Below, piece after piece: positions 3,242-59,496 of a DNA stretch of 64,000 bases. Origin of the DNA: Candidatus Bathyarchaeota archaeon (GTDB lineage Archaea; Thermoproteota; Bathyarchaeia; Bathyarchaeales; Bathycorpusculaceae); NCBI GenBank assembly GCA_963768425.1, contig CAVYHV010000006.1, positions 160,001-224,000 of the forward strand. The letters are read 5' to 3'. The notes beneath the pieces were generated by a model. The model ran no database searches, was not told the DNA's origin, and saw nothing but the letters and a program-made list of their open reading frames with translations. The translations under genes and the position numbers were made by a program. Numbering within the stretch: the stretch's first letter is position 1; each line of letters starts with the position of its first letter.

Positions 3242-4360
3242 ATGGTTTGGCGGCGAACAAAAATGAAATTTAACGTGGGCATCGAATCAATCGAAGCAGA
3301 AGTAAAAGGCAACATTCTCGTGGTTTGCTCCAGAGAACCTTTAAGAGTACTTAGCTCCGCCGTTTTAAACGGAGGGCTCATGGAAGCAGATGCGATAATT
3401 AATGTTCAAGTCCCTGAAGGTAGCGGCGAAAACAAAAATGACGCACACTGGAACGCCGAAGAATTCTTGAAAACGCAAGTTCAAGTTCTCGGGCTTCCGG
3501 AGGGCAAAGTGGTTGGGCTAATGACTGCCGCCAAAATGAAGAATGTAGTAACAGCGACCAGAAAATACGGCAAAACAACTGTGGCTCTTTTCGTGACTGG
3601 CGGAAAAACCGTTGCTGTTACAGCCGGTGAACCGGCAGCCTCAAAAAACCCGCCGAAACCTGGAACAATAAACATTATTCTGCTGGTAGATGGAAACATG
3701 ACAGACGGCGCTATAGTTGAGGCACACAAAACCATTACAGAAGCCAAAACAGTTGCGCTAAGGGAACTAGATCTTAGAAGCCAGTTTTCAGGTGACCTTG
3801 CTACTGGAACATTAACCGACACCATTGCAGTGGCTTGCACCAAAAAAGGGGAGCCCATACGTTTTACAGGAACTTTCACTTTAATCGGAGAACTCATCGG
3901 GCAAGGCGTTAGAGAATGCGTAAAGAAGGCTATTTACTTACAAGAAGGACTTGTGCCTGGTAGGCCTTTGATGGAAAGATTGACTGAGAGAGGAATAGAA
4001 ATCGAGAAGTTGATGTCTCTTTTCACTCGAATTGTCCTCGTTGAAGACGCTAAAATTCAGCAATTCAGGAAGGAAGTGGAGCAAACTTTAGCTGATAAGA
4101 AAATCGCGGGGTTGATTTTGGCAAGCCTCAGGTTTGACGATGATTTAAGAAAAGGCTTAATCCCCGAGCAAGCTCAAAATTCCGTTGACCAAGATGTGTT
4201 TGAAGAAATTGTGTCTGCAGCAGTTAGGATTTACTTGTCGGACACTTGCATCTCAGATGTTGAATGCCTCAGGTTGATGACGAAAGAAGAGAGTTTGGGT
4301 CCTCTGACAACTTGCGTTCTAAACGCAATCATGAAAAACGTCTACTCCAAAATTGGCTAA
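3242..4360 (+). CDS. cbiZ: Adenosylcobinamide amidohydrolase CbiZ with C-terminal extension
   Basis: LSSAVLNGG, GLMTAA, GTINIILL, TITEAKT, ATGTLTD motifs typical of CbiZ; start may be 3263. Confidence 0.85.
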   Translation: MVWRRTKMKFNVGIESIEAEVKGNILVVCSREPLRVLSSAVLNGGLMEADAIINVQVPEGSGENKNDAHWNAEEFLKTQVQVLGLPEGKVVGLMTAAKMKNVVTATRKYGKTTVALFVTGGKTVAVTAGEPAASKNPPKPGTINIILLVDGNMTDGAIVEAHKTITEAKTVALRELDLRSQFSGDLATGTLTDTIAVACTKKGEPIRFTGTFTLIGELIGQGVRECVKKAIYLQEGLVPGRPLMERLTERGIEIEKLMSLFTRIVLVEDAKIQQFRKEVEQTLADKKIAGLILASLRFDDDLRKGLIPEQAQNSVDQDVFEEIVSAAVRIYLSDTCISDVECLRLMTKEESLGPLTTCVLNAIMKNVYSKIG

Positions 4361-30570: not shown

Positions 30571-30885
30571 TCACAACACGTAGACTTCACCAATACTCAC
30601 TAAGCCGTTATCTCCAACGATTCTTTTAAGTTCTGGAAGAAGAGGTTCAAGCTTCGATTGTTCATCTATCACTTCAATAATCAAAGGCATGTTAACTGAT
30701 ACACCTTCCAAGTGTAAGGTAGATTTGCCACGCTTGCCAAATCCATTAATGCCAGTCCAAACCGTAGCACCCTCGACTCCAGATTTTATTAAAAAGTCTA
30801 TGACAAGCGTTTGAAGACGTTTACCACCCAACTCATCGTTCTTCTTTATTCGAATCGTGAGATTCCACATTTTCATTTTCATCAT
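30571..30885 (-). CDS. DUF190 (PII-like) protein commonly linked to crcB
   Basis: GATVWTGINGFG, MPLIIEVID; ATGA overlap with crcB. Confidence 0.9.
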   Translation of the reverse strand: MMKMKMWNLTIRIKKNDELGGKRLQTLVIDFLIKSGVEGATVWTGINGFGKRGKSTLHLEGVSVNMPLIIEVIDEQSKLEPLLPELKRIVGDNGLVSIGEVYVL

Positions 30886-31268
30886 AATACCTTCGCCATT
30901 ATCAAATTGCCTAATTCTCTGCCAGCAACTACAGCACTTAACGACAAACCAACATTAGCAACAATATTCAGGATAACAAGATTAAAACGATTGCTATCCA
31001 TCAAATTACTGGTTTCAAGTGCAAATGAAGACATTGTTGTGAATGAACCACAGAACCCTATTGCGACAAGCAACGTATATTTCACATCTAAATTCAGGGC
31101 AAGAGCAACAACGGAAAAGATGCCTAAAACGAAACTTCCAATAACATTGACTATCAAAACATTAATTGGAAGCCCACCTATGGTTATTGACGATTGAATC
31201 ATTTCATACCGCAACAAAACACCTGTGACCGCCCCGATAATTAAGAAGATGAATTCAATTTCTTTCAT
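30882..31268 (-). CDS. crcB: Fluoride channel Fluc/CrcB
   Basis: GA..G..LRY, NVIGSF, GFCGSFTTMSSF. Confidence 0.95.
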   Translation of the reverse strand: MKEIEFIFLIIGAVTGVLLRYEMIQSSITIGGLPINVLIVNVIGSFVLGIFSVVALALNLDVKYTLLVAIGFCGSFTTMSSFALETSNLMDSNRFNLVILNIVANVGLSLSAVVAGRELGNLIMAKVL

Positions 31269-31271
31269 TTC

Positions 31272-32114
31272 CTAAAGCCTCTTCATTATGCTAATTGCTT
31301 GAAATGTGTTTTCAAAAGTGGAAATGCCAAGGTCTGAACGAGCAAAACCGCCATTTCTATTCTGGCATTCTAACACGAAGTCAATTGTTTGTAATGGGTA
31401 TCTGCATTTCTCACCAAGCAAATCAAGGGTCAATACGCCATAATACGTATGTTCCATATATGGCATAAAACCAATTGGAATAACTGTAAATCCACCATGA
31501 GGTTTCTCGCATTTCCTTACAAACGATATTGTTTCATGGGTGTCTTCGATTTTCTTTTTTAGAAGATTTAGAGAAGCAAGAGCGTAATATGTAGAAATAA
31601 GGTCGGAGTGGTTCTGTGAGCCAAATCCACCATCCTCATTCTTAAATTGAAGCAACCATTTCGTTAAGTCATCCTTCTTAACTCGAACATTAAGTATGTT
31701 CGCAAGTTCCAAAGTTAAGAATGTCGTTGTAAATTCAGACGAGATTTCTGAAAAACCTTCTATTGAATTGAAACACCCTATAGAGTTGATGTGTGAAGTA
31801 ATTCGCTTTCTCAAACTGTTATTGATTTTTCCATTGCAAAACAATAGGGCTTTAGTAACGTAGAAAATTGGAAAAATACTCTCTGCTCTAAGTTCATTTA
31901 ACCATCTAATTGTTTTTTCAATGTTGGGAAAACTCGCATTTAGAAAACTTAGAATTGCCAACCCATAATATGTGTCCTGTGCATTGGATTCAGCACCTTG
32001 ACAAAAAGTGTAGCCACCATCTTCATTCTGACGATTAGTGACGTAATCTACTATTCTTTTGACCCATGATTTGTCGTTTAACCGCCTTACTTCAACCAAT
32101 TTAATCCGCACCAT
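31272..32114 (-). CDS. Prenyltransferase/squalene-oxidase repeat protein
   Basis: QNEDGGY, KNEDGGF, EKPHGGF, QNRNGGF repeats each followed by TYY/TF; start moved to ATG 32114, downstream of the riboswitch. Confidence 0.85.
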   Translation of the reverse strand: MVRIKLVEVRRLNDKSWVKRIVDYVTNRQNEDGGYTFCQGAESNAQDTYYGLAILSFLNASFPNIEKTIRWLNELRAESIFPIFYVTKALLFCNGKINNSLRKRITSHINSIGCFNSIEGFSEISSEFTTTFLTLELANILNVRVKKDDLTKWLLQFKNEDGGFGSQNHSDLISTYYALASLNLLKKKIEDTHETISFVRKCEKPHGGFTVIPIGFMPYMEHTYYGVLTLDLLGEKCRYPLQTIDFVLECQNRNGGFARSDLGISTFENTFQAISIMKRL

Positions 32115-32124
32115 TTTTTGATTG

Positions 32125-32185
32125 GTAGAAGCTATCAGCCTATGTCTGTTCAAGCATTTGGCGGTTAAAGGCGAGCCTCATCGCC
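32125..32185 (-). ncRNA. Fluoride (crcB) riboswitch
   Basis: Minus strand GGCGATGAGGCTCGCCTTTAACCGCC...GGCTGATAGCTTCTAC: P1 GGCGA/TCGCC, pseudoknot GAGGC/GCTTC, terminal CTAC; heads an operon containing crcB. Confidence 0.9.
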
Positions 32186-43866: not shown

Positions 43867-46663
43867 ATGGGAACATTAAATCTTGATAGTATTTTCAACC
43901 CTAAAAGTGTAGCTATTGTCGGAGCCAGTGACGCTGAAGGCTCAGTAGGCTACGCGATTGTAAAAAATTTTACTAAAATGGGGTTCGCAGGCAAAGTTTA
44001 CTTTGTCAACATTCGAAAGCCAGAGATTTTAGGTGTTAAAACTTTCAAGTCAGTCGATCAGATTCCGGAACCTGTCGACCTAGTTATGATTGCCACACCT
44101 GCCAAAACCGTTCCTGACGTCATGGAGGAATGTGGACGGGCAAATGTGAAAGGCGTAATCATAGTGTCTGCGGGCTTTAAGGAAACAGGTGCTGATGGGA
44201 AAGCTTTAGAAGATAGGATTCGTCAAATCGCCAAAAAATATGGAATCCGAGTTGTAGGACCAAACTGCATCGGCGTGCTTCGTCCCAAAAATAATCTTAA
44301 CGCCACTTTTTTGGATAAAATGCCTAAAGCAGGCAATGTTGCTTTTCTTTCTCAAAGCGGAGCTTTAGGCTCAGCAGTTCTTGACTGGGCAATCCATGAA
44401 AACATCGGTTTTAGCAACTTCGTTTCCGTCGGCTCCATGGTAGACGTGGACTTCGGTGACCTGATAGATTATTTCGGTTCCGACCCAAAAACCAAAAGCA
44501 TATTGATGTACGTAGAAGGCATAACGGATGCACGCAAATTCATGAGTGCAGCAAGACACTTTGCAAGAGCCAAACCAATAATTGTAGTCAAATCTGGCAA
44601 ATTCGCTGAAAGCGCAATGGCCGCAGCTTCTCATACGGGTTCGCTCTCAGGAGAAGATGGCATTTACGATGCTGCTTTCAAACGTGCAGGCATTGTAAGA
44701 GTCAGTGAAATCGCAGATTTATTTAACTCCGCGGAAGTCTTAGGATCGCAACCCCTACCCAAAGGTCCGAAATTAGCAATAATCACTAACGCAGGTGGAC
44801 CAGGCGTAATGGCGACGGACGCTTTAATTGCTTATAGCGGCAAGTTAGCGAGTCTAAGCCAGAAATCGCTGGATGCTCTCAACGGCGTGCTGCCTCCTTT
44901 CTGGAGCAAAGGCAACCCAATCGACGTTTTGGGTGACGCGAAAGCTGACCGTTACAAAGCTGCTCTTCAAGCTTGCCTCAACGATGAAAACATCGATGGA
45001 ATCTTGATTATTTTCACTCAGCAAGCAGTGTCAGAAGCAATAGAAATTTCCAAAAACATAGTTGATCTTGTACGCAACAAAACTAACCAAGACAAAACAA
45101 TCTTAACCTCGTTTATGGGTTTTGGCCCAGTTCAAGAAGCCAACAACATCCTAAACGCAAACAACATCCCAACATACTCAACTCCTGAACAAGCAATCAA
45201 AACATACATGTACATGTACGAGTACCAACGCAACAAAGAACTCCTATACGAAACCCCTGAAGAGTTACCCTACGACGATTCACCCCCAAAACGCCCCATA
45301 ATGGTCATACTACGGAATGCTGCATTTGAAGGCCGAGACGTCTTAACTGAAGACGAAGCAAAAAAAATACTCAAATACTATGATTTCCCCATCGTAACAA
45401 CAGAAGCCGCAAACAATGTAGAAGAAGCAGTGCAACTTGCCCAAAACATGGGTTTCCCAGTTGTACTAAAAATTCTCTCCCCCCAAATCCTCCACAAAAC
45501 AGACGCCGGCGGAGTAATTCTAAACATCAACACTCCAAACAAAGTTCGAGAAGCTTTCGAAACTCTAATCCAAAGAGCAACAGCCTACAACCCAAACGCG
45601 CAGATAATCGGTGTTACCGTTCAACCCATGGTTGAGAAAAAAGGCCAGGAAATCATAATCGGCGGAAAAACCGATCCAGTCTTCGGCCCAGTAATACTAT
45701 TCGGTATGGGCGGTGTCGGTGTAGAGCTTTTCAAAGATTACTCAATTGGGATTCCACCATTAAATACAACTCTGATTCACCGCATGATGGAAGACACAAA
45801 CATTTACCAACTGCTCAAAGGATACCGAGGTTCAGCTCCCGTTGATCTTAAAAAACTCGATGAAACCATGCTGCAATTCTCGCAGTTGCTTGTTGATTTC
45901 CCACAAATAAAAGAAATTGACATCAACCCACTCTTAATCAACGAGAAAGAAGCATGCATTCTTGACGCCCGCATCGTAATTGACAAAGATGCAGTTTGCC
46001 GCAAATTTGAGTTACACGAACACATGATTATTAGCCCTTACCCAAAAAAATACGAAACAATTTGGCGCCTAAAAAGCACACAAGAAGTACTGCTGCGCCC
46101 CATAAAGCCAGAAGACGAACCCATGTGGCTTGAAATGTTCCAAAGCTTCTCAGAAGAATCCATACGATACAGATTCTTCCAAATGCTAAAAGACACTCCA
46201 CGTGAAGTTCGAGTCCGCTACTGCAACATCGATTATGACAGAGAAATCGCAATTGTCGCTGAAATGGTTGAAGAACGGAAAAAGAAAAATCCTCGGTGTA
46301 AGCCGCGTCATCATTGAGACTGATGGAAAAAGCAGTGAAATGGCCTTCATCGTAAGCGACTACTGGCAGGGACTAGGTTTAGGAACTAAAATGGTTGACT
46401 ACGCGCTTGACATCGCAAAAGAAAAAGGCGTCGAAAGCGTCTACGCAATAATGCTGCAAGACAACTACAGAGCTTTGAGCTTGACAAAGAAAATGGGCTT
46501 TAACCTTGAATACTTAAGCGACGGAACAGTCAAAGCATCACTTAACTTAAAAAACGAAGACATAGATTCACGATGCCTAATAACAAATGTACCTGAACCA
46601 CTTCAAGAACAAACAAAGCAACCAAAAACCGCGAAAACAGAAGAAAAGACCGCTCCGGCGTAA
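43867..46663 (+). CDS. Acetate-CoA ligase (ADP-forming) family / GNAT fusion (Pat-type acetyltransferase architecture), frameshift ~46285
   Basis: FNPKSVAIVGAS, GPNCIG, SQSGALG, ASHTGSL, TNAGGPG, ATP-grasp HKTDAGGV, then GNAT WQGLGLGT. Confidence 0.9.
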
Positions 46664-46675
46664 TCGATAAGGTAC
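46417..46675 (+). repeat. Direct repeat copy 1 (3' end of acyl-CoA synthetase/GNAT gene)
   Basis: Nearly identical to 52751-53010. Confidence 0.95.
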
Positions 46676-46828
46676 ATCCTTCTTTCTTCGAATAATTATT
46701 CAATTTTGAGTAATAATTGGGGTCACCTTTTTCACATTGGTGTCTGTGTGCTTAACTTATTTTTGAATATGGAGTGTCTGAAGAATACTTTTATCTGTGA
46801 GTATGAAAATTATACTTTTGGTAATAAA

Positions 46829-47119
46829 ATGGGGCAAGAAGAACCTGAGATTGCAATCGTTGGAACAAAAGGTCAAATAGTTATCCCACAACGACTCCGA
46901 AAAGAACTAAACATAATTTCAAAAACAAAACTCATAGTATACCGATCAGGGGATAAAATTGTGGTAACCAAGCTGGAGCTTCCACCTTTGAAGGAAGAAT
47001 TAAAAGATCTTTTCAGCGAAATTGATAAACAAAACAAGGGCAAAAAGATTTCTGACAAGGAAATTTTGACGGAGATTCAAACTTACAGACTTGAGAAGCG
47101 GGCCAAAAAAGGCGCATAA
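46829..47119 (+). CDS. AbrB/MazE/SpoVT antitoxin
   Basis: VGTKGQIVIPQRLRKELNI; start at MGQEEPE. Confidence 0.9.
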   Translation: MGQEEPEIAIVGTKGQIVIPQRLRKELNIISKTKLIVYRSGDKIVVTKLELPPLKEELKDLFSEIDKQNKGKKISDKEILTEIQTYRLEKRAKKGA

Positions 47120-47120
47120 A

Positions 47121-47696
47121 ATGGCTCGAGTGGTAGTTGACACGAATGTTTTGATATCAGCGTTGATTAATAACGGAAAGTCAAGAAAACTTGTCCTTAA
47201 ATTGTTAGAGGAACATACAGTAATATTATCTAGTCAGATATTAGCTGAATTGGCTGATGTTATCTCAAGAGATAAATTTTCTGTTACAAGCTCTCAGGTT
47301 GACAGGTTCATTTCGATTCTGGTTAAAAAGGCAACTATCGTTTCAGTGCGTTCCATTCCAAAGGTCATATTGGAAGATCCTGACGACGATGTAGTCCTCG
47401 CCACTGCTCTCAGTGGAAAAGCCGATTACATAGTTAGCGGCGACAAGCACCTCCTCAAAATAGCTTGTTATGATGAAGACGCAGATAGTTTCCGTGAATC
47501 AATTTATTCAAATTATAGCCAAGCGTTAAGGAACATCTTGAAAGCAAGTGTGGATCGGCAGTTCCAAGTTTTTAGATTTTCACTTTGCAAATTTCGTATA
47601 CAATCAAATGCGGATACTTCAAGTAAAACCTATACAAATGAGGATTTTCTTTTTCAAACTCAACACTTGGATCAGGCTCATAAATCCTACAAATAG
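47121..47696 (+). CDS. PIN-domain (VapC-like) toxin with replaced C-terminus
   Basis: VVVDTNVLISAL, DPDDDVVLATA, ADYIVSGDKHLL; similarity ends ~47462 and the frame runs on into the convergent gene. Confidence 0.8.
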   Translation: MARVVVDTNVLISALINNGKSRKLVLKLLEEHTVILSSQILAELADVISRDKFSVTSSQVDRFISILVKKATIVSVRSIPKVILEDPDDDVVLATALSGKADYIVSGDKHLLKIACYDEDADSFRESIYSNYSQALRNILKASVDRQFQVFRFSLCKFRIQSNADTSSKTYTNEDFLFQTQHLDQAHKSYK

Positions 47697-48681
47697 CCAA
47701 ACCATTCTCACTAAGAGCGCTCGTCATTTCATCAAGGGTAAACCAATGATGCGGATTGTCTTTAACCTTGAACTCTATTTTGTAGTTAGGTAAACGTCCA
47801 TGAAAGCGTCCGTTGCTCGAGGAAGTTATGCCTTTTGCAAGTTGACCAAAAAACGGATGCGCCTCAATAATAAAAAATCTACCCTGATCAGCCAGAATTC
47901 TACTGATTTGGCTTAAAGCTTCGGAGAATTCCTTGTGGTTATGTGTTTTTCTGCAATAGTCAAAACTCACAATTGTATCTATAGCCACAATATAGTCAAA
48001 GTATTTGGAATGCACGTTTTTTGCAAAATCAAGAAAATCCCACTGAAAAAACTCTTCGTTATCAAGGTCTAGTCTTTTTTTGAGTTCGTTTGCTTTTTCA
48101 ATTAGAAATGCGCTTCGGTCAATACCGGTCACGTGTGCTCCAAGTTTAGCCAGAATCGTGGAATAATATCCTGGTCCGCATCCAAAGTCAAAGATCTTTT
48201 TTCCTGCAATTTTCTCTTTCGTAAAGAATTGTGCAACAAAATTTTCTACGCAATATTTGTAGTAGGTTCGGCTTTCAGGTCTTATGTCTGAAACGTCATC
48301 GTAAAATTTCTTTTTAAACCATTTTTCCATAATTCCCTGCTGATCATCATGTTCCTTCAAAGCTTGAGGAATTGCTGTTTTCATTGCTTTGTTGACAGCT
48401 GAAACCAACATCTCTTCGACGTTTTGCATGGACCCGTTTGAACAATCATTGCCTATGATTTTTTCGCCAAATGCAGAGTTTAACCATTCTTTGTATTCAG
48501 GCAACGTTTTTTCTAAGACTTCATGGATTGTTGACTGCAGTTTTGCATAAATTTCTGGATCCAATTGTTCAAAAAGCTGAACTTTTTCCGAAGGCGCATT
48601 CAGGTGTTGATTTTGCTTTTTGGCTATTGCAGGCTTTTTAGAGAGGGTTTTAGTTGTTGGTTTATTTTTTGGCAAAAACAA
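47572..48681 (-). CDS. Class I SAM-dependent methyltransferase with N-terminal precursor-like domain
   Basis: IFDFGCGPG motif I, VTGIDRS, FDYIVA; residues ~1-112 paralogous to 50480-50938. Confidence 0.85.
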   Translation of the reverse strand: MFLPKNKPTTKTLSKKPAIAKKQNQHLNAPSEKVQLFEQLDPEIYAKLQSTIHEVLEKTLPEYKEWLNSAFGEKIIGNDCSNGSMQNVEEMLVSAVNKAMKTAIPQALKEHDDQQGIMEKWFKKKFYDDVSDIRPESRTYYKYCVENFVAQFFTKEKIAGKKIFDFGCGPGYYSTILAKLGAHVTGIDRSAFLIEKANELKKRLDLDNEEFFQWDFLDFAKNVHSKYFDYIVAIDTIVSFDYCRKTHNHKEFSEALSQISRILADQGRFFIIEAHPFFGQLAKGITSSSNGRFHGRLPNYKIEFKVKDNPHHWFTLDEMTSALSENGLAICRIYEPDPSVEFEKENPHLYRFYLKYPHLIVYEICKVKI

Positions 48682-48776
48682 TCGCTGCTCTATTTATGAT
48701 CTCTCAAGATAATATTTATGGGTTTAGTGGTTCAAAATAAAGACATAGCTGAGGCATTTTCTTGAAAGTAAATTTG

Positions 48777-50366
48777 TTAATAATATGGAACGATTATTTT
48801 TAAGGGATAATTTCTTTTTGAGCTTGACGTTTTTCCCATGCTTAAGCGGTTCCAAACCGAACGGAGATTTTCATATCGTTGGCTATCGGGCAAAGGCGAA
48901 TAAAAATAACTATAATTATTTCCTGTTTTTTCTTTGCTCAGCTCTATTCCATATTCTTGCGGGTTATGAGAAATTTCTGAATCAGGCAAAACCCCAAAAC
49001 GTGAAATGCTGACTTGATCAATAAATTCTTGGTTTTGCTCTAAGAAAGCAACGGATTGTTCAAAATCTCTCTGAGTTTCCCCTGGAAAATCTACTATCAT
49101 AAATGTCAAAACGCGAATGCCATTCTTTGCAGTATCGCGGATCACGTTTTTAGCAGTTTCTATGTCATACCCTTTTTTCATCTTACTCAGAATTCTCTGG
49201 GACCCAGATTCTATGCCAAACCACAACCCGATACAACCCGCCTGCCGAATTTTCCCAAGCAATTTGTCGTTCATTTCAGAACGAACTCTGGCCATACCCA
49301 TCCACTGCATTCCGATATTTTCTTCAATCAATAAATCGCAGAGTTTCTCCAAAGATTTGATGTTACAATTTATCAAGCTGTCATTGAAGCGAATGGTGGA
49401 AACTCCATATTTTTCTTTGATATGCTTGAATTCCGATACTATGTTTTCTGGTGACCGCATCCGATACGTGTTGCCCCATAGACGTTTTTCAACACAAAAA
49501 ACACAATCACCAACACAACCTCTAGAGCCCACAACCGGCATTATAGGCATCCCGAACTTGTTTTGAGGATATTCCTCCAAGGGCAAATTATCGTAGTCGG
49601 GAAAAGGCAAATCGTCAAGAGATTTAATTAATGGTCGATCGACGTTAGAGATAATTTTGCCCCTCTCATTTCTGAAGGAAACTCCATCGATTCCCTTTAT
49701 TGAATCTAAACTTCCGCCATAGAAATTAGCTATGTCAGCGATTGTGGACTCGCCCTCCCCTCGAACTGTTACGTCAATTTCTGGGTTGGCAGACAGAACT
49801 TCTTCCCATGAAGCGAATGCCGGACCCCCCAAAACTGTCAAAATTCTCGGTTGAATTTTCTTTAATTTACGTGCGAGAAGTATGCTCCACATCAATCCCG
49901 TATGAGTTATTACATGAAATCCCACAACACTTTGACCTTTGGGATCGTTGGCTATCTCCATAAACCATTCATTACAAATTTTCCAAACATCCGACAGTGT
50001 CGTCTGTTTTGATTCTTCGCTGATAATATCTTTGGACGTTGAATTTGAATATGTATAACCTAATTGATCAGAAGCCTCTTTCAGCATTATTTCTTCAAAA
50101 ATTTTTTGGGCATTTTGAATGGTTGAATAAATTTCTGTGTCAGGAACCTTTTTCCATTTCGCCCCTCTCTTGATGCCGCTTTTTCTTAAAATTTCTCCAG
50201 GTTTGATTTCGAGTCCTTGATGGAAAAGAGTTAAGTTAAAAGCTTTAATATTCAGATCAAACGTGCTTACCTTTTGATTATTTGCATTTAAGGTGCTTGT
50301 CAAGTATGGAATTGCGGGATAAGGAACTAAGGAAGAAACTGGAGGGATGCAAAGAAAAACAGGCAA
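48777..50366 (-). CDS. Cobalamin-dependent (class B) radical SAM enzyme
   Basis: B12-binding VVGF...VLGGP...VRGEGE, LDDLPFPDY, SRGCVGDCVFC, GIESGSQRIL, FPGET. Confidence 0.92.
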   Translation of the reverse strand: MPVFLCIPPVSSLVPYPAIPYLTSTLNANNQKVSTFDLNIKAFNLTLFHQGLEIKPGEILRKSGIKRGAKWKKVPDTEIYSTIQNAQKIFEEIMLKEASDQLGYTYSNSTSKDIISEESKQTTLSDVWKICNEWFMEIANDPKGQSVVGFHVITHTGLMWSILLARKLKKIQPRILTVLGGPAFASWEEVLSANPEIDVTVRGEGESTIADIANFYGGSLDSIKGIDGVSFRNERGKIISNVDRPLIKSLDDLPFPDYDNLPLEEYPQNKFGMPIMPVVGSRGCVGDCVFCVEKRLWGNTYRMRSPENIVSEFKHIKEKYGVSTIRFNDSLINCNIKSLEKLCDLLIEENIGMQWMGMARVRSEMNDKLLGKIRQAGCIGLWFGIESGSQRILSKMKKGYDIETAKNVIRDTAKNGIRVLTFMIVDFPGETQRDFEQSVAFLEQNQEFIDQVSISRFGVLPDSEISHNPQEYGIELSKEKTGNNYSYFYSPLPDSQRYENLRSVWNRLSMGKTSSSKRNYPLKIIVPYY

Positions 50367-50479
50367 TTTAGATCATCTTAACTGTTTATACCCATTGGTT
50401 TTATGGTAGCTACTACTTTATGGCGTAAATCGGAGAACTATTTTTCAGTTGATGGCGTTGGTTTCTGAACCGAAGCTTC

Positions 50480-50938
50480 TTATTTGAACTGATCTTTCAA
50501 AGCTTGACGAATTGCTCCCATCATAGCCTCATTGACAGCATTAACAACCATATCGTCCATTTTTCTATTTGGTGTAGGGCAGTCGTTACCACATGAGCTA
50601 CACAAAGGTGTTGGACAGTCGTTTCCACATGAACTACAAAGCGGCGTCGGGCAATCGTTACCACATGAACTACACAAAGGTGTAGGGCAATCATCAGCTG
50701 CTATCAAAGAAGCATCAACCCACTGCAGATATTCTGGCAAAGTTTTTGCAACGGTATCACGAATTGTTGACTGCAGTTTTGCATACATTTTAGGATCCAG
50801 TTTTTCCACAGGTGGCATTTTTGCCAAGAGTTTCGTTAAACGTTTCTTTTGTGCTGGAGTCAGTTTTTTTGCTGATGGAGCGGTAGTTGGTTTTTTTGAG
50901 GAAGCTTTAGGTGTAGATTTATTTTTTGACAAAAACAA
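50480..50938 (-). CDS. Putative multi-core RiPP precursor with Cys-rich repeats
   Basis: (N/D)DCPTPLCSSCG x3 plus NDCPTP, located between two radical SAM genes. Confidence 0.8.
   Translation of the reverse strand: MFLSKNKSTPKASSKKPTTAPSAKKLTPAQKKRLTKLLAKMPPVEKLDPKMYAKLQSTIRDTVAKTLPEYLQWVDASLIAADDCPTPLCSSCGNDCPTPLCSSCGNDCPTPLCSSCGNDCPTPNRKMDDMVVNAVNEAMMGAIRQALKDQFK
50570..50695 (-). repeat. 36-bp coding tandem repeat, 3.5 units
   Basis: Units differ almost only at synonymous positions. Confidence 0.95.
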
Positions 50939-51020
50939 TCACTACAATGATGTATTAAGTCGTCTTATTTAATGTTTATTGTGAAGCAAATTTGAGGTTG
51001 GATCATTTGGGGAAAACTCT

Positions 51021-52438
51021 TCAACTTTTGGTTTTTGCATTTTTGTTTTTTTGAGATTCCAACAGGAAATTGTACGAAATTAGGAGCTTTAGTATTTCAT
51101 TTTGAAAAGTGCAAAAGTAGTCTTCTTTTATGCCAAGTTGCCCCGTTTTAACATAGATATCGTAAGCGCATCCTCCGCCGCAAATTCCAATCGCAGCACA
51201 TCTCATACAGTCTTTATTCTTTAGTGTCCCCATTTCCAGCCATTTATAAAACACGGGTTCTTCTTGAACTTTCAAATCATCTTTAATTGGAATTTGATAT
51301 TTTCCCGACGGATAAAACGCGTGGCAAGGACCCACTGTTCCAGTTGGCGAAAAAAATAGTAGTTGACCAAAAGCTGGGCAATCGTAAAGGTGGAATATTT
51401 CTTTGAAAAAATAATTTGCACGCCGATTATCAATGCGATCTTCAAACATGTGCAATTCTTTTGCTTTTAAGTAGGCCCCAAAAAGATGATGAGCAAGCTC
51501 TTTGGGGTCTGGAACTTCAAATTCGCTTGGCTCTTTAAGTCTGGTCAACAAGTTGAAGCCTATGGTTCTGACGCCTAATTTCTGGATAAATTCTATTATT
51601 TCTTCTGTGTGCTCATAGTTCTGTTTCGTAATGGTGCATGATATTCCTGTGTTTACACCCGCCTCTTTTAGAAGCGCCAACGCTTTGAGTGCTGAGTAAA
51701 AGGTTTCTTTTCCATCGGTGAAAACACGGTTTTTGTCAATGTTAGCCCACCCGTCAAGCGACAACCCCACGGTAACGTTGTGTTGTTTAAGTTTCTTAGC
51801 TATGTTTTCGGTTATTAGGCTTCCATTTGTTACGCAGGAAAACAAGAATTTACCTTAGAAGCCGCCTCAAGCTTCTCCATGATATAGAATACAATTTCAC
51901 TATTGCTAAACGGCTCTCCCCCATAAAAAGTGACCCTGTATTCTGGAACCTGTTTTGCCTCGTTGACAAGAACATTTATGACTTTATCAGCCAAATCCTT
52001 AGACATCACTGCACTTGGGCCTTTTAGAGAGTTTTCTATAAAACAGTAACCGCACCTGAAATTGCAGAAGTCGGTAACCAAAATGTAGGCAAGATTGGTT
52101 TGTGGTTTTTTTCTAAGCAGACTGGTTGCAAGAGTTTCAAAAACTTTTTCCTCATTAAAGCCTTGAGGAACCAAAAATTTTAGTTCCATTAACTCTTTAA
52201 TGTCCTTGCCATGCTCGCCCTCACTTAGATCTGCCAAAACCTTTTCGTACTTTTTGTTGGTTAAGTACACTTTCTTTAGAGTTAAAGAATTGAAAAGACA
52301 CTTCGTTGATTCATCAATATCAAACAAGTGGACAAACGGCGAAAGAACCCCTTGAGCAAGCTCTTCACGGAGCACTCGCTCAGAAGACTGGTTTTTATTC
52401 ACAATCACATTAACCGCCTTAGATTGTTTCTTGCTCAT
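51021..52438 (-). CDS. Radical SAM/SPASM peptide maturase with N-terminal RRE-like domain (frameshift ~51840)
   Basis: TDFCNFRCGYC, FYGGEP, TNGSL, SLDG; SPASM CPAF...GPCH...CMRCAAIGICGGGC...FC; N-terminal beta3-alpha3-like segment ending LMELKFLV. Confidence 0.9.
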
Positions 52439-52750
52439 TTACCCACCCAAAAAGAAAACCATCTTAAATGTCCCTAAATTAACAAATTATTAAAATCTTT
52501 CCTAAATCCCATTGACGACCATTTTCGATGTACAGGATAAACCTTTTGTGTTTTTCCATTACTTAATTGTGAAAAATAATGGTGCACCCTTGGTTACCCT
52601 TCTTTCTATTTGGCTGTTTCGAATCTGGCTGCTTCAATTTGAACCGGTCCTCAAAAAGACAACGAAACTATACAGTTAAGTTATCGAGATTATCAAAAGT
52701 AGACTTGTTTGCTCTAAAACAGGGCACAATTTATATTGAGTTGAATAATA

Positions 52751-53010
52751 AAAAGAAAAGGCGTCGAAAGCGTCTACGCAATAATGCTGCAAGACAATTA
52801 CAGAGAGCTTTAAGCTTGACAAAGAAAATGGGCTTCAACCTTGAATACTTAAGCGACGGAACAGTCAAAGCATCACTTAACCTAAAAAACAAAGACATAG
52901 ATTCACGATACCTAATAACAAATGTACCTGAACCACTTCAAGAACAAACAAAGCAACCAAAAACCGCGAACACAGAAGAAAAGACCAGTCCGACCTAAAC
53001 AAAAAGGTAC
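52751..53010 (+). repeat. Direct repeat copy 2 (degenerate 3' fragment of the acyl-CoA synthetase/GNAT gene)
   Basis: Matches 46417-46675 with scattered substitutions, a 2-nt insertion and a 1-nt deletion. Confidence 0.95.
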
Positions 53011-53408: not shown

Positions 53409-53849
53409 TCAAATTTCGAACGAAAACGTTTGGTCATTAAAAAAATGGGCTCTAATTGAAAGCTCACTTAGGATTCGCTCTAAAACCGCCTCTCTATTCT
53501 CGAGCTCGTGTTCCCATATTCGCATAACAATCCACCCTTTATTTTCAAGGCGTAATGTTGTTTCTATATCTCTTAATTTGTTCTTATTCAATTTAGGAAT
53601 CCAATACTCTTTGTTACTTTTAGGTAAATGCCCGTGGATTGGACAGCGGTGCCAGAAGCAACCATCAACGAAAATTGCTATCTTTCTTTTAGGAAACGCA
53701 ATGTCTATTTTTTCTTTGCCATATTGGATACTGAACCTAAACCCCTTTGCCCACAATGCCCTTCTCAAAGCAACTTCAGGCGTTGTGTTTTTGGAACGTA
53801 TGGCAGACATTATTTTTGAACGCTTTTCTTTAGAAATTGTGTCTACCAT
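53409..53849 (-). CDS. vsr: Very short patch repair endonuclease
   Basis: DTISKEKRSKIMSAIRSKNTTPE, FVDGCFWH, RIWEHE. Confidence 0.93.
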   Translation of the reverse strand: MVDTISKEKRSKIMSAIRSKNTTPEVALRRALWAKGFRFSIQYGKEKIDIAFPKRKIAIFVDGCFWHRCPIHGHLPKSNKEYWIPKLNKNKLRDIETTLRLENKGWIVMRIWEHELENREAVLERILSELSIRAHFFNDQTFSFEI

Positions 53850-53891
53850 AATTCTCAAACGTTTTATATTACTTCCAAACAATATTAGCGT

Positions 53892-54749
53892 ATGTGCCCC
53901 AACATACTAACAACAATAAAAAGTATTTCAGAATTCAGAAATAACGATCTCAAAAATTACTTCGCAACTTACCCTATCCGCATAAATCAAGTTGGGCAAC
54001 AATTGGAGTTTTACGTCAAAGATGCTATATGTGGCTCTTTCAAGTCTAACAAGACCGAAGACCTAGCTCACACTAAAGGGGTCTTTTCCTACTTAGGTAA
54101 TCAAAACAACCCTCCTGACCTCATTATTGCCAATGGTGACGCCTACGAGATAAAGAAAATCGAGAACCTCAAGGCTTCTCTTGCACTTAATAATTCCCCA
54201 CCAAAAGACCAACTTCATAGAGATGACCCAAGGATTACTCAATATTGCCGAGATTGTGACGGAGGCAATTGGAAAAGCAAGGAAATTTTTTATACTGTGG
54301 GGTGTGCTGAAAAAACTAAACTAAAGCATCTGTTCTTCATACATGGTCGTTGCTACGCCGCAGACAAAGAAATTTATGAAAACAAAGCAACCCAATTGAA
54401 AGAAGGCATCGACATTTTTTTCAAGTCAAAGGGATGGGAGACCACCAAAACAAAGGAATTGGGTCGAATAAATAAAATGGACCCTCTTGGCATTACAAAT
54501 TTTAGGATTCGCGGTATGTGGGAGATAGAAAATCCACTTAAGGTTTTTTCGTACTTATACAAGTTCGATGAACGGAAGAGTTTTTCGTTAGCCGCTCTTA
54601 TGACGAAAGAGAAATACGGTTCTTTCCCAAAAGAAGATAAAATGGCATTGGAAAATGATGACAAAATTACCTCAAAGACAGTAATTGTCAGGAACCCCAA
54701 TAATCCTGCTCAAGACGTGGAAGCTCAGCTTATTACCTCATGGTGGTAA
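53892..54749 (+). CDS. Type II restriction endonuclease, NgoPII family (GGCC inferred)
   Basis: FSYLGNQNNPPDLII, EIKKIE, DPLGITNFRIRGMWEIENP; adjacent HaeIII-like methyltransferase. Confidence 0.8.
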   Translation: MCPNILTTIKSISEFRNNDLKNYFATYPIRINQVGQQLEFYVKDAICGSFKSNKTEDLAHTKGVFSYLGNQNNPPDLIIANGDAYEIKKIENLKASLALNNSPPKDQLHRDDPRITQYCRDCDGGNWKSKEIFYTVGCAEKTKLKHLFFIHGRCYAADKEIYENKATQLKEGIDIFFKSKGWETTKTKELGRINKMDPLGITNFRIRGMWEIENPLKVFSYLYKFDERKSFSLAALMTKEKYGSFPKEDKMALENDDKITSKTVIVRNPNNPAQDVEAQLITSWW

Positions 54750-54752
54750 ACG

Positions 54753-55766
54753 CTGGAAATAGTGTCTCTCTTTTCAGGTTGCGGTGGGTTAGACCTTGGA
54801 TTTACGAATACTGGTTTCGAGTTAGTCTATGCAAATGACAATGACCCAATAGTCTGGGAGACTTTTGAAAAGAACCACAAAATAGCTATTGACAAGCGTT
54901 CTTTGTTTGAGATTAAATCCTCTGAAATACCTGATGCAGATGGAATAATTGGTGGTCCTCCTTGCCAAAGTTGGAGCCTTGCAGGAAAGATGCGTGGCGC
55001 AAAGGATGAAAGAGGACAGCTATTTTATGAGTACGTTAGAGTGCTGAAGGATAAGCGACCCAAGTTTTTCCTTGCTGAGAATGTCCCAGGAATTGTTTCC
55101 AGGACACATCTTCCGGAGTTTAAGAATATCTTAAGGAGGTTTTCTTCGCTGGGTTATGAAGTCTCCTTTGGGCTAGTTGATGCCCGAAATTATGGTGTTC
55201 CCCAAGACCGTAAAAGAGTGTTCATGATCGGTTTTAAAAAAAGTCTCAAGTGCCGATTTAAATTTCCTGAGCAAACACATTCAGAACTTGGCGGAAAGAC
55301 CCTCGATGGCAAGAAAACTTTCAAATGGTTGACATTGAAAGATGCTATTGGAGACCTTCCTGAACCCATTCGGGCTCTTGATAAGAACAAGGCTAACGGC
55401 AATCTAGCTATCCCTAATCATGAGTATATGAACGGAAGCTTTTCATCCATGTATATGTCTAGAAATAGACGAAGAACTTGGGACGAGCCTTCCTTTACAA
55501 TCCAAGCTGGCGGAAGGCATGCACCTTTACATCCAGGTTCCGCTAAGATGACAAAAGTTGAGACTGATCTGTGGAAGTTTGAGGGAGATAGTCCTCAATT
55601 CAGGCGTTTGTCAGTAAGAGAAGTTGCGAGAATTCAGACATTCCCAGATGATTTCAGGTTTTATTACACGAATATTGCAGATGCCTACAAGATGATTGGG
55701 AATGCGGTTCCGGTTAAGTTGGCAGAAGTTCTAGCGAAAAAGATCTCTGAAGACCTTAGTGTCTAA
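54753..55766 (+). CDS. C5-cytosine DNA methyltransferase, M.HaeIII-like (GGCC inferred)
   Basis: SLFSGCGG, GGPPCQSWS, ENV, QDRKR, target-recognition region NHEY..GSFSSMYMSRNR closely resembling M.HaeIII, GNAVP; probable CTG start. Confidence 0.92.
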   Translation: MEIVSLFSGCGGLDLGFTNTGFELVYANDNDPIVWETFEKNHKIAIDKRSLFEIKSSEIPDADGIIGGPPCQSWSLAGKMRGAKDERGQLFYEYVRVLKDKRPKFFLAENVPGIVSRTHLPEFKNILRRFSSLGYEVSFGLVDARNYGVPQDRKRVFMIGFKKSLKCRFKFPEQTHSELGGKTLDGKKTFKWLTLKDAIGDLPEPIRALDKNKANGNLAIPNHEYMNGSFSSMYMSRNRRRTWDEPSFTIQAGGRHAPLHPGSAKMTKVETDLWKFEGDSPQFRRLSVREVARIQTFPDDFRFYYTNIADAYKMIGNAVPVKLAEVLAKKISEDLSV

Positions 55767-57867: not shown

Positions 57868-59496
57868 GAGAGTGTGTGAAAAGTCTCATTTTTTGCCAGC
57901 CACTTACCGTTAAGCTTAAAGCTAGCCTTAGAACAACTGAAAAGCCATGAGCGAACATGTAAATGGAACCCACAGAGACCAAACAGTGCTGTTCCCAGAT
58001 ACCATCAACAAGTACGTTGAAAAAGAAAACCCGGTTAGGTTCATCGACGCTTTCATAGATAGCCTTGACCTGGAAAAGCTTGGCTTCAAACACTCAATTC
58101 CGGCTGAAACTGGAAGACCCTCTTACAATCCTTCAGACTTGCTAAAACTCTACGTTTACGGCTACCTAAACCAGGTCAGGTCTAGCAGGAAATTGGAGAA
58201 AGAGTGCCACCGAAACGTTGAAGTTATGTGGCTTATGAAGAGGCTTGTTCCAGACTTCAAAACCATTGCTGATTTCAGGAAAGATAACGTCGACTGCATC
58301 AAAGGCGTATTCAAAGAGTTTGTTTACCTCTGCAGGAGCTTGGATCTTTATGGTGCTCAGCTGGTAGCCATCGATGGTACAAAATTCAGGGCTGTTAACT
58401 CACGGGGCAACAACCTCAACGAGAAAGCAGTCGCTCTAAGACTCAAGCAGACAGAGGAAAGGATAGCAAAATATCTCAACGAATTAGACCACAATGATGC
58501 GTCTGATTCAGACGGAGATGGAGCAGTCAAGACCGATGAGCTTAAAGAAAAAATAAGCCAGTTGGAAGAGAAGAAGAAGCAGTACGAGCATATTCAAGAG
58601 CAGATGAAGGCCACAGGCCAAAGGGAGATTTCTCTTGTGGATCCTGATAGCCGCTTGATGAGAGTGGATAGTCAACGGTTTGAAGTCGGCTATAACATTC
58701 AAACATCAGTCGATGCGAAACAGCATCTAATCGTTGATTATGATGTGATAAATAACTCAACTGACCATCATCAGCTAGCCAAGGACGCCTTTGCAGCAAA
58801 GGAGACCTTGGGTGTGGATGAGCTTGATGTTTTGAGTGACAAGGGATTCTATGTTGAAAAAGACGTCTCAGACTGCGAGAACAATGGTATTACTGTCTTC
58901 ATGCCTATACCCGCCGTTTTGAGCCCTTACAAGAGTATTGGTGTTCCAGCGCCTGAGTTCTACAGCGACAAATTTGTTTATGATGCTGCTAAGAACGTGT
59001 ATGTTTGTCCTGCAGGCGAAGAGTTGAAGTTTTGTAAGTGCGTCTACAGAGATGAACCTGAGAGAGGCAGGGTTTACAGGACTGCTAGTTGCGCTGTCTG
59101 TGTTTTTAGGGGCAAGTGTACGAGGAACAAACGTGGACGGACTATGGTTAGGTCTGAGTATGATGATGCAGTTGAGCGTCTAAGGGTTAGGTTGAAGGGT
59201 CTTGATGGACGAGAGAAGATTCGTTTGAGACGGATGCTAGTGGAGCATCCGTTTGGGACTATTAAGCGTGCTTTCAATCAGGGCTATGTGCTATTGAAAG
59301 GCTTGCGAAAGGTTAGAGGAGAGGTCGGATTTACGATGCTGGCTTACAACATGCGACGGGCTATCAATATTCTTGGAGTTGGTATGCTGATGGGCTTCAT
59401 TAAGGCGTAGAAAAGAGAAAACAAGTGAACAATAGTAGCTAACAGCTTGAGTGATAGATACTCTTAGGATTTAGCTCTGAGTTTTCACACGGTCTC
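57868..59496 (+). mobile_element. IS1182-family insertion sequence
   Basis: Imperfect terminal IRs GAGAGTGTGTGAAAAGTC / GAGACCGTGTGAAAACTC (rc), 4-bp TSD GAAT at 57864 and 59497. Confidence 0.92.
57947..59410 (+). CDS. IS1182-family DDE transposase
   Basis: GRPSYNP..LLKLY.YGY, SSRKLE, PDFKTIADFR, AIDGTK, DKGF, VEHPFGTIK. Confidence 0.95.
   Translation: MSEHVNGTHRDQTVLFPDTINKYVEKENPVRFIDAFIDSLDLEKLGFKHSIPAETGRPSYNPSDLLKLYVYGYLNQVRSSRKLEKECHRNVEVMWLMKRLVPDFKTIADFRKDNVDCIKGVFKEFVYLCRSLDLYGAQLVAIDGTKFRAVNSRGNNLNEKAVALRLKQTEERIAKYLNELDHNDASDSDGDGAVKTDELKEKISQLEEKKKQYEHIQEQMKATGQREISLVDPDSRLMRVDSQRFEVGYNIQTSVDAKQHLIVDYDVINNSTDHHQLAKDAFAAKETLGVDELDVLSDKGFYVEKDVSDCENNGITVFMPIPAVLSPYKSIGVPAPEFYSDKFVYDAAKNVYVCPAGEELKFCKCVYRDEPERGRVYRTASCAVCVFRGKCTRNKRGRTMVRSEYDDAVERLRVRLKGLDGREKIRLRRMLVEHPFGTIKRAFNQGYVLLKGLRKVRGEVGFTMLAYNMRRAINILGVGMLMGFIKA

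Follow-up and report, generated by a model that had tools for sequence, protein, structure and literature searches.

A candidate radical SAM and methyltransferase cassette for the maturation of a cysteine-repeat protein in Bathyarchaeia

What is made by four adjacent archaeal genes, one of which encodes a small protein with a threefold cysteine repeat and the others putative radical S-adenosylmethionine (SAM) enzymes and a methyltransferase? These genes lie at positions 47572-52438, all on the minus strand, of a 64,000-nt stretch (the window) of contig CAVYHV010000006.1 (assembly GCA_963768425.1) from a Candidatus Bathyarchaeota archaeon. They encode a radical SAM enzyme with a SPASM domain, a 152-aa Cys-repeat protein (the precursor), a cobalamin-binding radical SAM enzyme and a class I methyltransferase. 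The gaps are short: 82 nt between precursor and SPASM gene, 113 nt between the cobalamin enzyme and the precursor, and 95 nt between the methyltransferase and the cobalamin enzyme. An earlier sequence-only reading had described this co-oriented group, and the open reading frames (ORFs) and the Pfam and NCBIfam matches confirm it; three of the four genes are intact as stated, but the SPASM gene is not one ORF, being frameshifted in this assembly. On balance, the locus is rather probably a self-contained maturation cassette for a small Cys-repeat protein, the product of which would be thioether-crosslinked and methylated.

The precursor (50480-50938, minus strand) consists of a Lys-rich tail with an FLSKNK motif, leader helices, the Cys repeats and a follower helix. 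The repeat core (50570-50692, minus strand), recognizable from the repeat family and from synonymous differences, contains three 36-nt units, DCPTPLCSSCGN, and a partial unit, DCPTP. Pairwise, the three units differ at 6, 4 and 9 nucleotides, with no amino-acid change. Because the units differ by synonymous changes only, the reading frame is under selection and is not a chance ORF.

A word-indexed search found 158 proteins related to the precursor (E <= 0.01), and a profile search only 18 representative clusters (E <= 0.001) among 1.84 billion (1.84e9) representative proteins; an ESM Atlas search gave no usable match. The repeat logo, built from 255 units in 120 family members with 1 to 5 units each, reads C-P-[T184 V60]-[E118 P75 Q62]-[L160 V43 I28]-C-[S237]-[S150 A105]-C-[G143 S71 D31]-[N246]-[D149 Q101 E4]. 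C1, P2, C6 and C9 are invariant, N11 is present in 246/255 units, and D, Q or E occupies position 12 in 254/255. The target motif of formylglycine maturases, C-x-P-x-R, is absent from the units, and a sulfatase-maturase reading was dropped for this reason. The logo spacing yields C-x-x-[D/Q], the motif tied to radical SAM-installed thioethers in PMC13692751.

Leader and follower are conserved while the core varies, as the sequence-only reading had anticipated. In the family alignment, E45, P49, Y52, L55, K65, P68, Y70, W73, A142 and I143 are invariant, and the same scaffold carries other cores: CPTPICDCNT units (P0124), a CxC-rich core (P0128), CWSCGTG units (L061) and a further one in P0136. 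Such a precursor, with constant flanks and a varying core, follows the logic of peptides that are synthesized on the ribosome and modified after translation (RiPPs). AlphaFold2, run on a 46-row alignment, gives a simple helical model with helices at residues 28-39, 49-81 and 125-150, at a block pLDDT of 87-89 over most of them and 33-40 in the repeat region; the mean pLDDT of both AlphaFold2 models made is 61-65.

The SPASM gene is read here as two overlapping ORFs on the minus strand. The N-terminal one (51830-52438, 202 aa) holds a putative substrate-recognition domain at residues ~33-110, the radical SAM CX3CX2C motif (CNFRCGYC) and Radical_SAM and Fer4_12 matches; the C-terminal one (51021-51845, 274 aa) holds the rest of the radical SAM barrel and the SPASM domain. 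Both halves match Radical_SAM (PF04055). For the SPASM domain (TIGR04085) the score is 44.4 bits, with a cut-off of 27, and the seven-Cys pattern (C..GxxxxC, CxxCx5Cx3C, C) is present in full. Among NCBIfam models, FibroRumin (TIGR04136) is the best for the N-terminal ORF (62.7 bits vs. a cut-off of 400), and the C-terminal ORF scores 120.9 with FibroRumin, 86 with PapB and 50.2 with QhpD. The top NCBIfam models of an intact orthologue from a relative (L052, 472 aa) are all peptide maturases, and its closest solved relative is CteB (5WGG/5WHY, E 1e-23). Residues ~33-110 can be aligned with the N-terminal part of the FibroRumin, CefB, QhpD and CcpM models; from this alignment alone, a putative N-domain resembling a RiPP recognition element (RRE) is proposed. 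Among the nearest further SPASM relatives (35-47% identity), many are fusions of ~570-595 aa to a C-terminal GNAT acetyltransferase (P0193, P0194, P0196, P0201, P0204, P0234). GNAT would thus be another tailoring enzyme physically tied to this SPASM lineage.

The cobalamin-binding radical SAM enzyme (48777-50366, minus strand, 529 aa) combines a B12-binding domain (PF02310, 34.5 bits, cut-off 32.1) with Radical_SAM (PF04055, 68.6 bits) and a CX3CX2C motif, CVGDCVFC. Its NCBIfam scores all stay under the cut-off (ApyD 160.6/750, HpnJ 155/577.6, TIGR03975 144.2/281.85), and its top match in the PDB is 9CCB (E 2e-20). Since HpnJ and BchE score similarly to the ApyD and TIGR03975 families, methylation by this enzyme itself is not certain. 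The window also encodes CbiZ (3242-4360) and, at 20.7-23.2 kb, fragments of a BtuF-like binding protein and an ABC ATPase, which the sequence-only reading had proposed as a source of cofactor. This proposal did not hold: these cobalamin genes are 25-44 kb from the cassette and are not among the neighbors conserved in relatives, and the link is coincidental.

The methyltransferase ORF (47572-48681, minus strand) encodes 369 aa in two parts. The catalytic domain (47572-48348, minus strand) is a predicted class I Rossmann SAM-dependent methyltransferase with a DFGCGPG motif (Methyltransf_31, 69.8 bits, and also Methyltransf_23/25/12/11). The N-terminal domain (residues 1-111; 48349-48681, minus strand) is a core-less paralogue of the precursor leader and follower. 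In BLASTP it aligns with the whole precursor (E 9e-22), the match taking in the FLxKNK start and both the leader and follower helices; its own helices are at 42-71 and 88-109, and it has GNDCSNGSMQN where the precursor has its repeats. In 18 aligned methyltransferase sequences E43, A46, L48, T51, P61, Y63, W66 and S69 are invariant, and the leader positions L40, P42, E43, Y45, A46, K47, L48, Q49, P61, Y63 and W66 are invariant or nearly so. The remnant core is about 10 aa long, and its Cys is kept in only 7/18 sequences; the other 11 have A, G, S or Y in its place or, in L041, lack the stretch.

With its invariant leader positions and no conserved Cys in the remnant, this N-terminal domain suggests a docking module and not a second substrate. 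Likewise, the loss of the fused core and the existence of a full precursor as a separate protein argue for docking over self-methylation of the fused core. Hence, of the precursor-fused methyltransferase described by the sequence-only reading, the homology to the precursor stands, and a role as a second substrate is not supported. An ESMFold2 co-fold of precursor residues 25-152 with methyltransferase residues 30-115 reached an ipSAE of 0.37 (best control 0.00), with a contact agreement of at least 79% between runs and a partner pLDDT of at least 59, a result graded as weak support. The mark used is reached by 116/157 solved complexes and 2/215 mismatches; at scores of 0.60 or lower it is reached by only 18/157 solved complexes, plus both mismatches that passed. 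The pairing in the co-fold is taken as a hint only.

In a search with the methyltransferase catalytic region two groups appear: a Bathyarchaeial clade (at least 72% identity) and a sister clade (50-61%, 244-412 aa) without the precursor-like domain, one member of which (P0319) has a SPASM C-terminus fused to the methyltransferase. A metagenome scan with the sister-clade alignment and a generic pattern kept 80 loci, with a single close relative (L062); the rest have methyltransferases of 22-55% identity. L062 is a GC-rich contig, probably bacterial, on which a Cys-repeat precursor, a SPASM enzyme and a methyltransferase are encoded in one direction. Between leader and follower, this precursor (194 aa) has a CxC-rich stretch and eight CAPPVDCA units; it is unrelated to the Bathyarchaeial repeat. 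The SPASM enzyme (530 aa) is 32% identical to the Bathyarchaeial one (E 5e-65; top NCBIfam model FibroRumin, 218/400), and the methyltransferase 55% identical (E 2e-107). Since L062 pairs the same SPASM and methyltransferase lineages with a Cys-repeat substrate, this trio is older and wider than the Bathyarchaeial cassette, to which the cobalamin enzyme and the docking domain are clade-specific additions. Although their repeats are unrelated, the two systems have strongly conserved methyltransferases (55% identity); this suggests that they have a methylation chemistry on Cys-repeat substrates in common.

A match of the window methyltransferase to the PADLOC model mad2 (MADS defence; 74.8 bits, E 1.5e-21) exceeds that to any Pfam methyltransferase model and probably reflects generic methyltransferase similarity. 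PADLOC further matched pVip to the radical SAM core (67.8 bits) and PDC-M51A to the cobalamin enzyme (39.3 bits), and gave none for the precursor; as these are generic domain matches only, an anti-phage defence reading was dropped.

The cassette is conserved but patchy. In a draw of 61 genomes, 36 of them other genomes of the same genus, the precursor is present in the window's own genome (G000) and in 6/36 of these others. The only match outside the genus is weak (G056, E 3.4e-4, inside a 1143-aa frame) and probably spurious. The gene order of the window recurs at 6/9 stretches from six same-genus genomes. Across 185,579 species genomes scanned, 31 loci were found; they belong to 21 records, of which 20 are titled as Bathyarchaeota metagenome-assembled genomes and one is a 10-kb contig titled Sulfotelmatobacter. 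At these 31 loci, the SPASM gene adjoins the precursor in 25, with degraded SPASM remnants in one more (L056); the cobalamin enzyme is found in 21, the methyltransferase in 23, and the complete set of four, ordered as in the window, in 21. In 8/31 loci an additional precursor copy lies between the cobalamin enzyme and the methyltransferase, whole or split in seven (L035, L040, L042, L046, L047, L049, L059) and as a 42-aa fragment in L048. The claim of a conserved, uncharacterized archaeal cassette is therefore upheld by the gene order at these 21 loci and by scores that reach no curated cut-off. Clustering of ORFs of at least 90 aa at the 31 loci showed no further family in more than six of them, antisense artefacts aside.

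The following maturation path would fit these observations. The Lys-rich tail, two or three leader helices and the follower helix would together make up a scaffold for recognition, with the 12-residue units, C-P-T-x-x-C-S-S-C-G-N-D, in an unstructured loop that it surrounds. In a first step, the SPASM enzyme would bind this scaffold and proceed unit by unit, taking a hydrogen atom from the side-chain carbon three residues past a Cys (the D/Q after the third Cys, the E/Q/P after the first). It would then join the Cys sulfur to that carbon, forming ranthionine-type thioether rings as expected from the homology to CteB, PapB and CrpC. This step is proposed because CteB is the closest solved relative, the best models are those of peptide maturases and the units have the C-x-x-[D/Q] spacing. 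In a second step, the cobalamin enzyme, judged by its family, may methylate an unactivated carbon. In a third, the class I methyltransferase may methylate a heteroatom, in a remaining Cys thiol or in the carboxylate of an Asp, and would reach the substrate or the maturase through its own core-less leader/follower copy as docking module. The product may remain an intact modified protein of ~15 kDa, as reported for CrpA, and not a released peptide; this is favored because no protease or exporter is conserved and the follower helix is strongly conserved. A more specific form is advanced only tentatively: the leader/follower would be a portable docking scaffold, the copy in the methyltransferase would pair with the substrate or occupy the same maturase receptor, and the product would be an uncleaved protein with its loop converted into a stack of thioether rings.

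A classical secreted RiPP would be made differently. Leader and follower would be removed, and one cross-linked repeat peptide, or several identical 12-mers from a multi-core precursor, exported as an antimicrobial or signal, cutting and export being left to housekeeping proteases and transporters not linked to the cassette. A leader-core-follower layout, a conserved scaffold with a changing core and a unit number that is not fixed are typical of RiPPs, and the patchy spread (6/36 genomes), with up to three cassettes per genome and flanking transposases (L036, L042, L048), fits an accessory secondary metabolite. However, no protease, C39 transporter, ABC exporter or immunity gene is conserved with the cassette across the 31 loci, in line with the sequence-only reading, which had seen neither protease nor exporter in the cluster. 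Moreover, the precursor begins with a disordered Lys-rich tail and lacks a signal peptide. Its follower helix, modelled confidently together with the leader, belongs to the best-conserved parts, which is more in keeping with a retained domain. One 12-mer follows directly on the next, with neither spacers nor recognition sequences between them, and the multi-core comparison to cyanobactins was rejected on this ground and for want of a conserved protease at the 31 loci. A single repeat core, as in CrpA, fits better; freyrasin too has a single repeat core. All in all, a secreted peptide seems unlikely.

The Cys repeats could also be metal or iron-sulfur ligands in a metal store, chaperone or electron carrier, the enzymes being inactive on it or only tuning it. 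With three Cys per 12 residues and an invariant Cys-Pro, the repeat can be read as C-x4-C-x2-C-x3-C-P, which resembles the end of the ferredoxin motif. A CxxC pair is kept even in the most divergent cores (L061, P0124), and the authors of the CrpA study also suspect a metal-related role for their modified protein (PMC13692751). This reading nevertheless leaves unexplained the acceptor-type residue at +3 (D/Q/E in 254/255 units) and the SPASM peptide-maturase homologue adjoining the precursor in 25/31 loci. L062 pairs an unrelated Cys repeat with the same enzyme types, and the precursor matches no Pfam or NCBIfam family, those for metal binding included. Metal ligation in place of modification is thus improbable. 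Metal binding by the cross-linked product itself is possible, and in that sense the metal reading is only a partial rival.

Several points weigh against a modifying cassette. Thioether, C-methyl and heteroatom-methyl are all drawn from family resemblance, and the intact SPASM orthologue L052 is below every named equivalog cut-off (FibroRumin 194/400, PapB 149/340, SCIFF 105/425, TIGR04463 (CrpC) 98/525, CefB 123/600, QhpD 117/453), as the cobalamin enzyme is below that of ApyD (161/750). In SPASM residues 1-120, Pfam found no RRE or PqqD even at E <= 10, but only noise (E 0.05-0.33); of the RRE-like N-terminus of the sequence-only reading, the alignment of residues ~33-110 to maturase models stands and the Pfam detection fails. 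The co-fold pass is weak, and as precursor and methyltransferase N-domain are paralogous, its score may be inflated. Two loci lack the cobalamin enzyme (L034, L060) and two lack both it and the methyltransferase (L057, L061). The precursor occurs with no enzyme nearby in 5/31 loci (L037, L050, L054, L055, L058), a pattern that the sequence-only reading had named as speaking against it; each of these five, though, shares its record with a full cassette (L033, L044, L053, L039, L042), so that this objection does not take hold. Nothing consistent was seen among the neighbors of the orphan precursors, apart from one family of ~820-840-aa ORFs near three of the five. Finally, the SPASM ORF is not intact in this assembly, so that the cassette may be dead in this genome, and cassette genes are often frameshifted or fragmentary in relatives, which could be due to long-read assembly errors or to genuine decay.

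The frameshift lies at 51848-51854 (minus strand), where the window reads AAGGTAAA and the orthologue L030 AAGGGTAAA. It corresponds to a 1-nt deletion near 51853 (alignment column 726), one G of a GGG run being missing relative to the intact orthologues. All remaining length differences to four orthologues are multiples of three, and the intact orthologues in relatives are single ORFs of 469-518 aa. Public runs screened by sampled words reached 0.32 at best and none reached half, so that no run of the same strain is available. Compared with the window, each of the two run X1 contigs listed across the site has one extra nucleotide (behind 51852 and behind 51848, respectively) and 15-16 further differences in about 200 nt. 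Therefore, related strains keep the SPASM reading frame; the window's own state is not settled by this.

If the deletion is real, the cassette would be an inactive passenger of a mobile segment in this genome, making no product here although the family may function elsewhere. The cassette lies, together with a MazE-like/PIN pair, between direct repeats, in a region that also holds restriction-modification, toxin-antitoxin and transposase genes, and fragmented cassettes are known from L032, L056, L059 and L060. On the other side, the three remaining genes are intact, the precursor repeats differ only synonymously, and the deletion falls in a homopolymer. Splits in several further genes of the window speak for assembly errors, and the two related-strain contigs, from an independent run, keep the frame. 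An inactive passenger is therefore possible, but we lean away from it. One of the other split genes encodes an ADP-forming acetyl-CoA synthetase (ACS) fused to a GNAT domain (Pat-like); it is read as overlapping ORFs (43867-46317 and 46202-46663), and in L023 a single ORF encodes the orthologue. Of the binding protein and ABC ATPase, nothing but fragments is matched at 20.7-23.6 kb. Together with the SPASM frameshift, these cases suggest either assembly indel errors or widespread decay.

The direct repeats themselves, at 46417-46675 and 52750-53010, are ~260 nt long and 94-95% identical, with one 2-nt indel, and bracket a 6.3-kb segment with the cassette and the MazE-like/PIN pair (46706-47696). 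Each copy comprises the ACS-GNAT gene's 3' end and about 12 nt more. This looks like an att-type duplication by an integrating element; no integrase was seen between the copies. L034 also has an ACS gene nearby, but the 260-nt duplication of the window was not found there. To the right of the cassette (53409-55766) are a Vsr mismatch endonuclease, an NgoPII-type restriction endonuclease (294.8 bits) and a C5 cytosine DNA methylase (305.9 bits), and beyond this restriction-modification module a PLD-like protein and a DDE transposase (57947-59410). Homologues of this transposase (75-79% identical) flank the cassette in L042 (542-2002 and 14123-15583), L036 (5489-6951) and L048 (1524-2984); in L042 they are on both sides, as in a composite transposon. 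One record carries three full cassettes (L038, L043, L048). These three cassettes, the flanking transposases and the bracketing repeats argue that the cassette behaves as an accessory, mobile trait.

Contigs of four public runs were compared with the window, and RNA-library contigs from two studies fall on the precursor ORF. Four contigs of X19 cover 50456-50915 with 14-46 differences each, and one 235-nt contig of X8 has 0 differences. Stretches of the SPASM gene without such contigs carry no weight either way. The precursor is thus present in RNA libraries; transcription is not proven by this, and it also weighs against the case that such libraries may hold DNA and that the runs were picked using this stretch.

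Some further features were noted around the cassette. The PIN-domain ORF (47091-47696, plus strand, 201 aa, domain at residues 13-125) overlaps the 3' end of the methyltransferase gene by 125 nt on the opposite strand, and 'PIN' matches to residues ~159-201 in relatives are the antisense of this 3' end. Upstream of its cassette, the closest relative has a 126-nt tandem repeat array (L031, 1412-2368), seen as six overlapping copies of a 300-nt reference with 61-83% identity. Elsewhere in the window, a fluoride riboswitch (RF01734, 32119-32194, minus strand, 45 bits vs. a gathering score of 34) is located at the start of a prenyltransferase-like ORF (31272-32153), followed by crcB (30882-31268).

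Bathyarchaeia are abundant and uncultured, and we know of no characterized natural product or RiPP-like protein modification from them. The compact cassette, with four genes and no conserved accessory genes, suits heterologous expression, and the idea that an enzyme is recruited by way of a degenerate copy of its substrate can be tested on it. Should the docking scaffold be real, it would be a natural counterpart of engineered leader-fused RiPP enzymes, and the cassette a protein-level RiPP-like modification system in Bathyarchaeia, with a dedicated methyltransferase shared by a bacterial sister system. No publication on the cassette family was found in the full-text literature, most subscription journals being outside its scope. 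In a search by term, an archaeal RiPP survey (PMC12144867) does not mention Bathyarchae, SPASM or B12.

By its scores, the cassette belongs to no curated equivalog; several known systems nevertheless resemble it in part. With the ranthipeptide maturases SCIFF/CteB and PapB (freyrasin), the SPASM enzyme shares the CX3CX2C motif and the seven-Cys SPASM domain. PapB forms iterative thioethers from Cys to side chains on repeated C-x-x-x-D type motifs. Here, however, the substrate has three times the length and also a follower, the cassette includes two methylating enzymes, and the scores are below the cut-offs. QhpD, on the other hand, crosslinks Cys to Asp/Glu in a retained protein, the quinohemoprotein amine dehydrogenase gamma-subunit QhpC, and matches weakly (117/453); no dehydrogenase subunits or QhpE-type protease are found near the cassette, the substrate of which is a repeat. 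The FibroRumin maturase model (TIGR04136) is the top one for both the Bathyarchaeial (194 bits) and the L062 enzyme (218 bits), both far under the 400-bit cut-off; for its name, no publication was found in the same full-text literature.

Class B radical SAM RiPP methylases (TIGR03975/PoyC-type, ApyD) share the B12-binding and radical SAM domains with the cobalamin enzyme and are among its best NCBIfam matches, but the scores stay below the cut-off (161/750 for ApyD, 144/282 for TIGR03975). Borosins (OphMA-type) also combine a methyltransferase and a precursor-like sequence in one polypeptide. The fold of borosin methyltransferases differs from the class I Rossmann fold predicted here; moreover, the precursor-like part of the Bathyarchaeial enzyme is N-terminal and has lost its core, and a separate full precursor exists. 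A borosin identity was rejected on the class I fold and on the fused core, which is not conserved in the 18 methyltransferase sequences.

The closest parallel is CrpA/CrpB/CrpC of Methanococcus voltae (TIGR04463 family), reported in 2026 (PMC13692751), so that archaeal SPASM enzymes cross-linking Cys-repeat proteins are already on record. In that study, modifications of -2 Da were mapped to ACAGM, CAVD, PCAGD and CPLVL; Bathyarchaeia are not named in its text and three supplements as available. Both systems are archaeal, place a SPASM enzyme (RRE-type there, with a putative RRE-like N-domain here) beside a Cys-repeat protein of more than 100 aa, and have D/Q-type acceptors at +3 of Cys. In both, a second protein shares the N-terminal domain of the substrate (CrpB there, the methyltransferase here), and the cluster is without a protease, the product being regarded as a modified protein. 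The cassette nevertheless differs from the described CrpABC system: the SPASM orthologue scores 98 bits against the 525 of TIGR04463, the repeat is 12 aa long and not 17 aa as in CrpA, a C-terminal follower helix is conserved, a cobalamin enzyme and a methyltransferase are added, and the companion protein is itself an enzyme. The host, furthermore, is not a methanogen but belongs to Bathyarchaeia, in another phylum. The cassette would thus extend the SPASM cross-linking of whole archaeal proteins, as presented in PMC13692751, to a second phylum and add two methylations to it.

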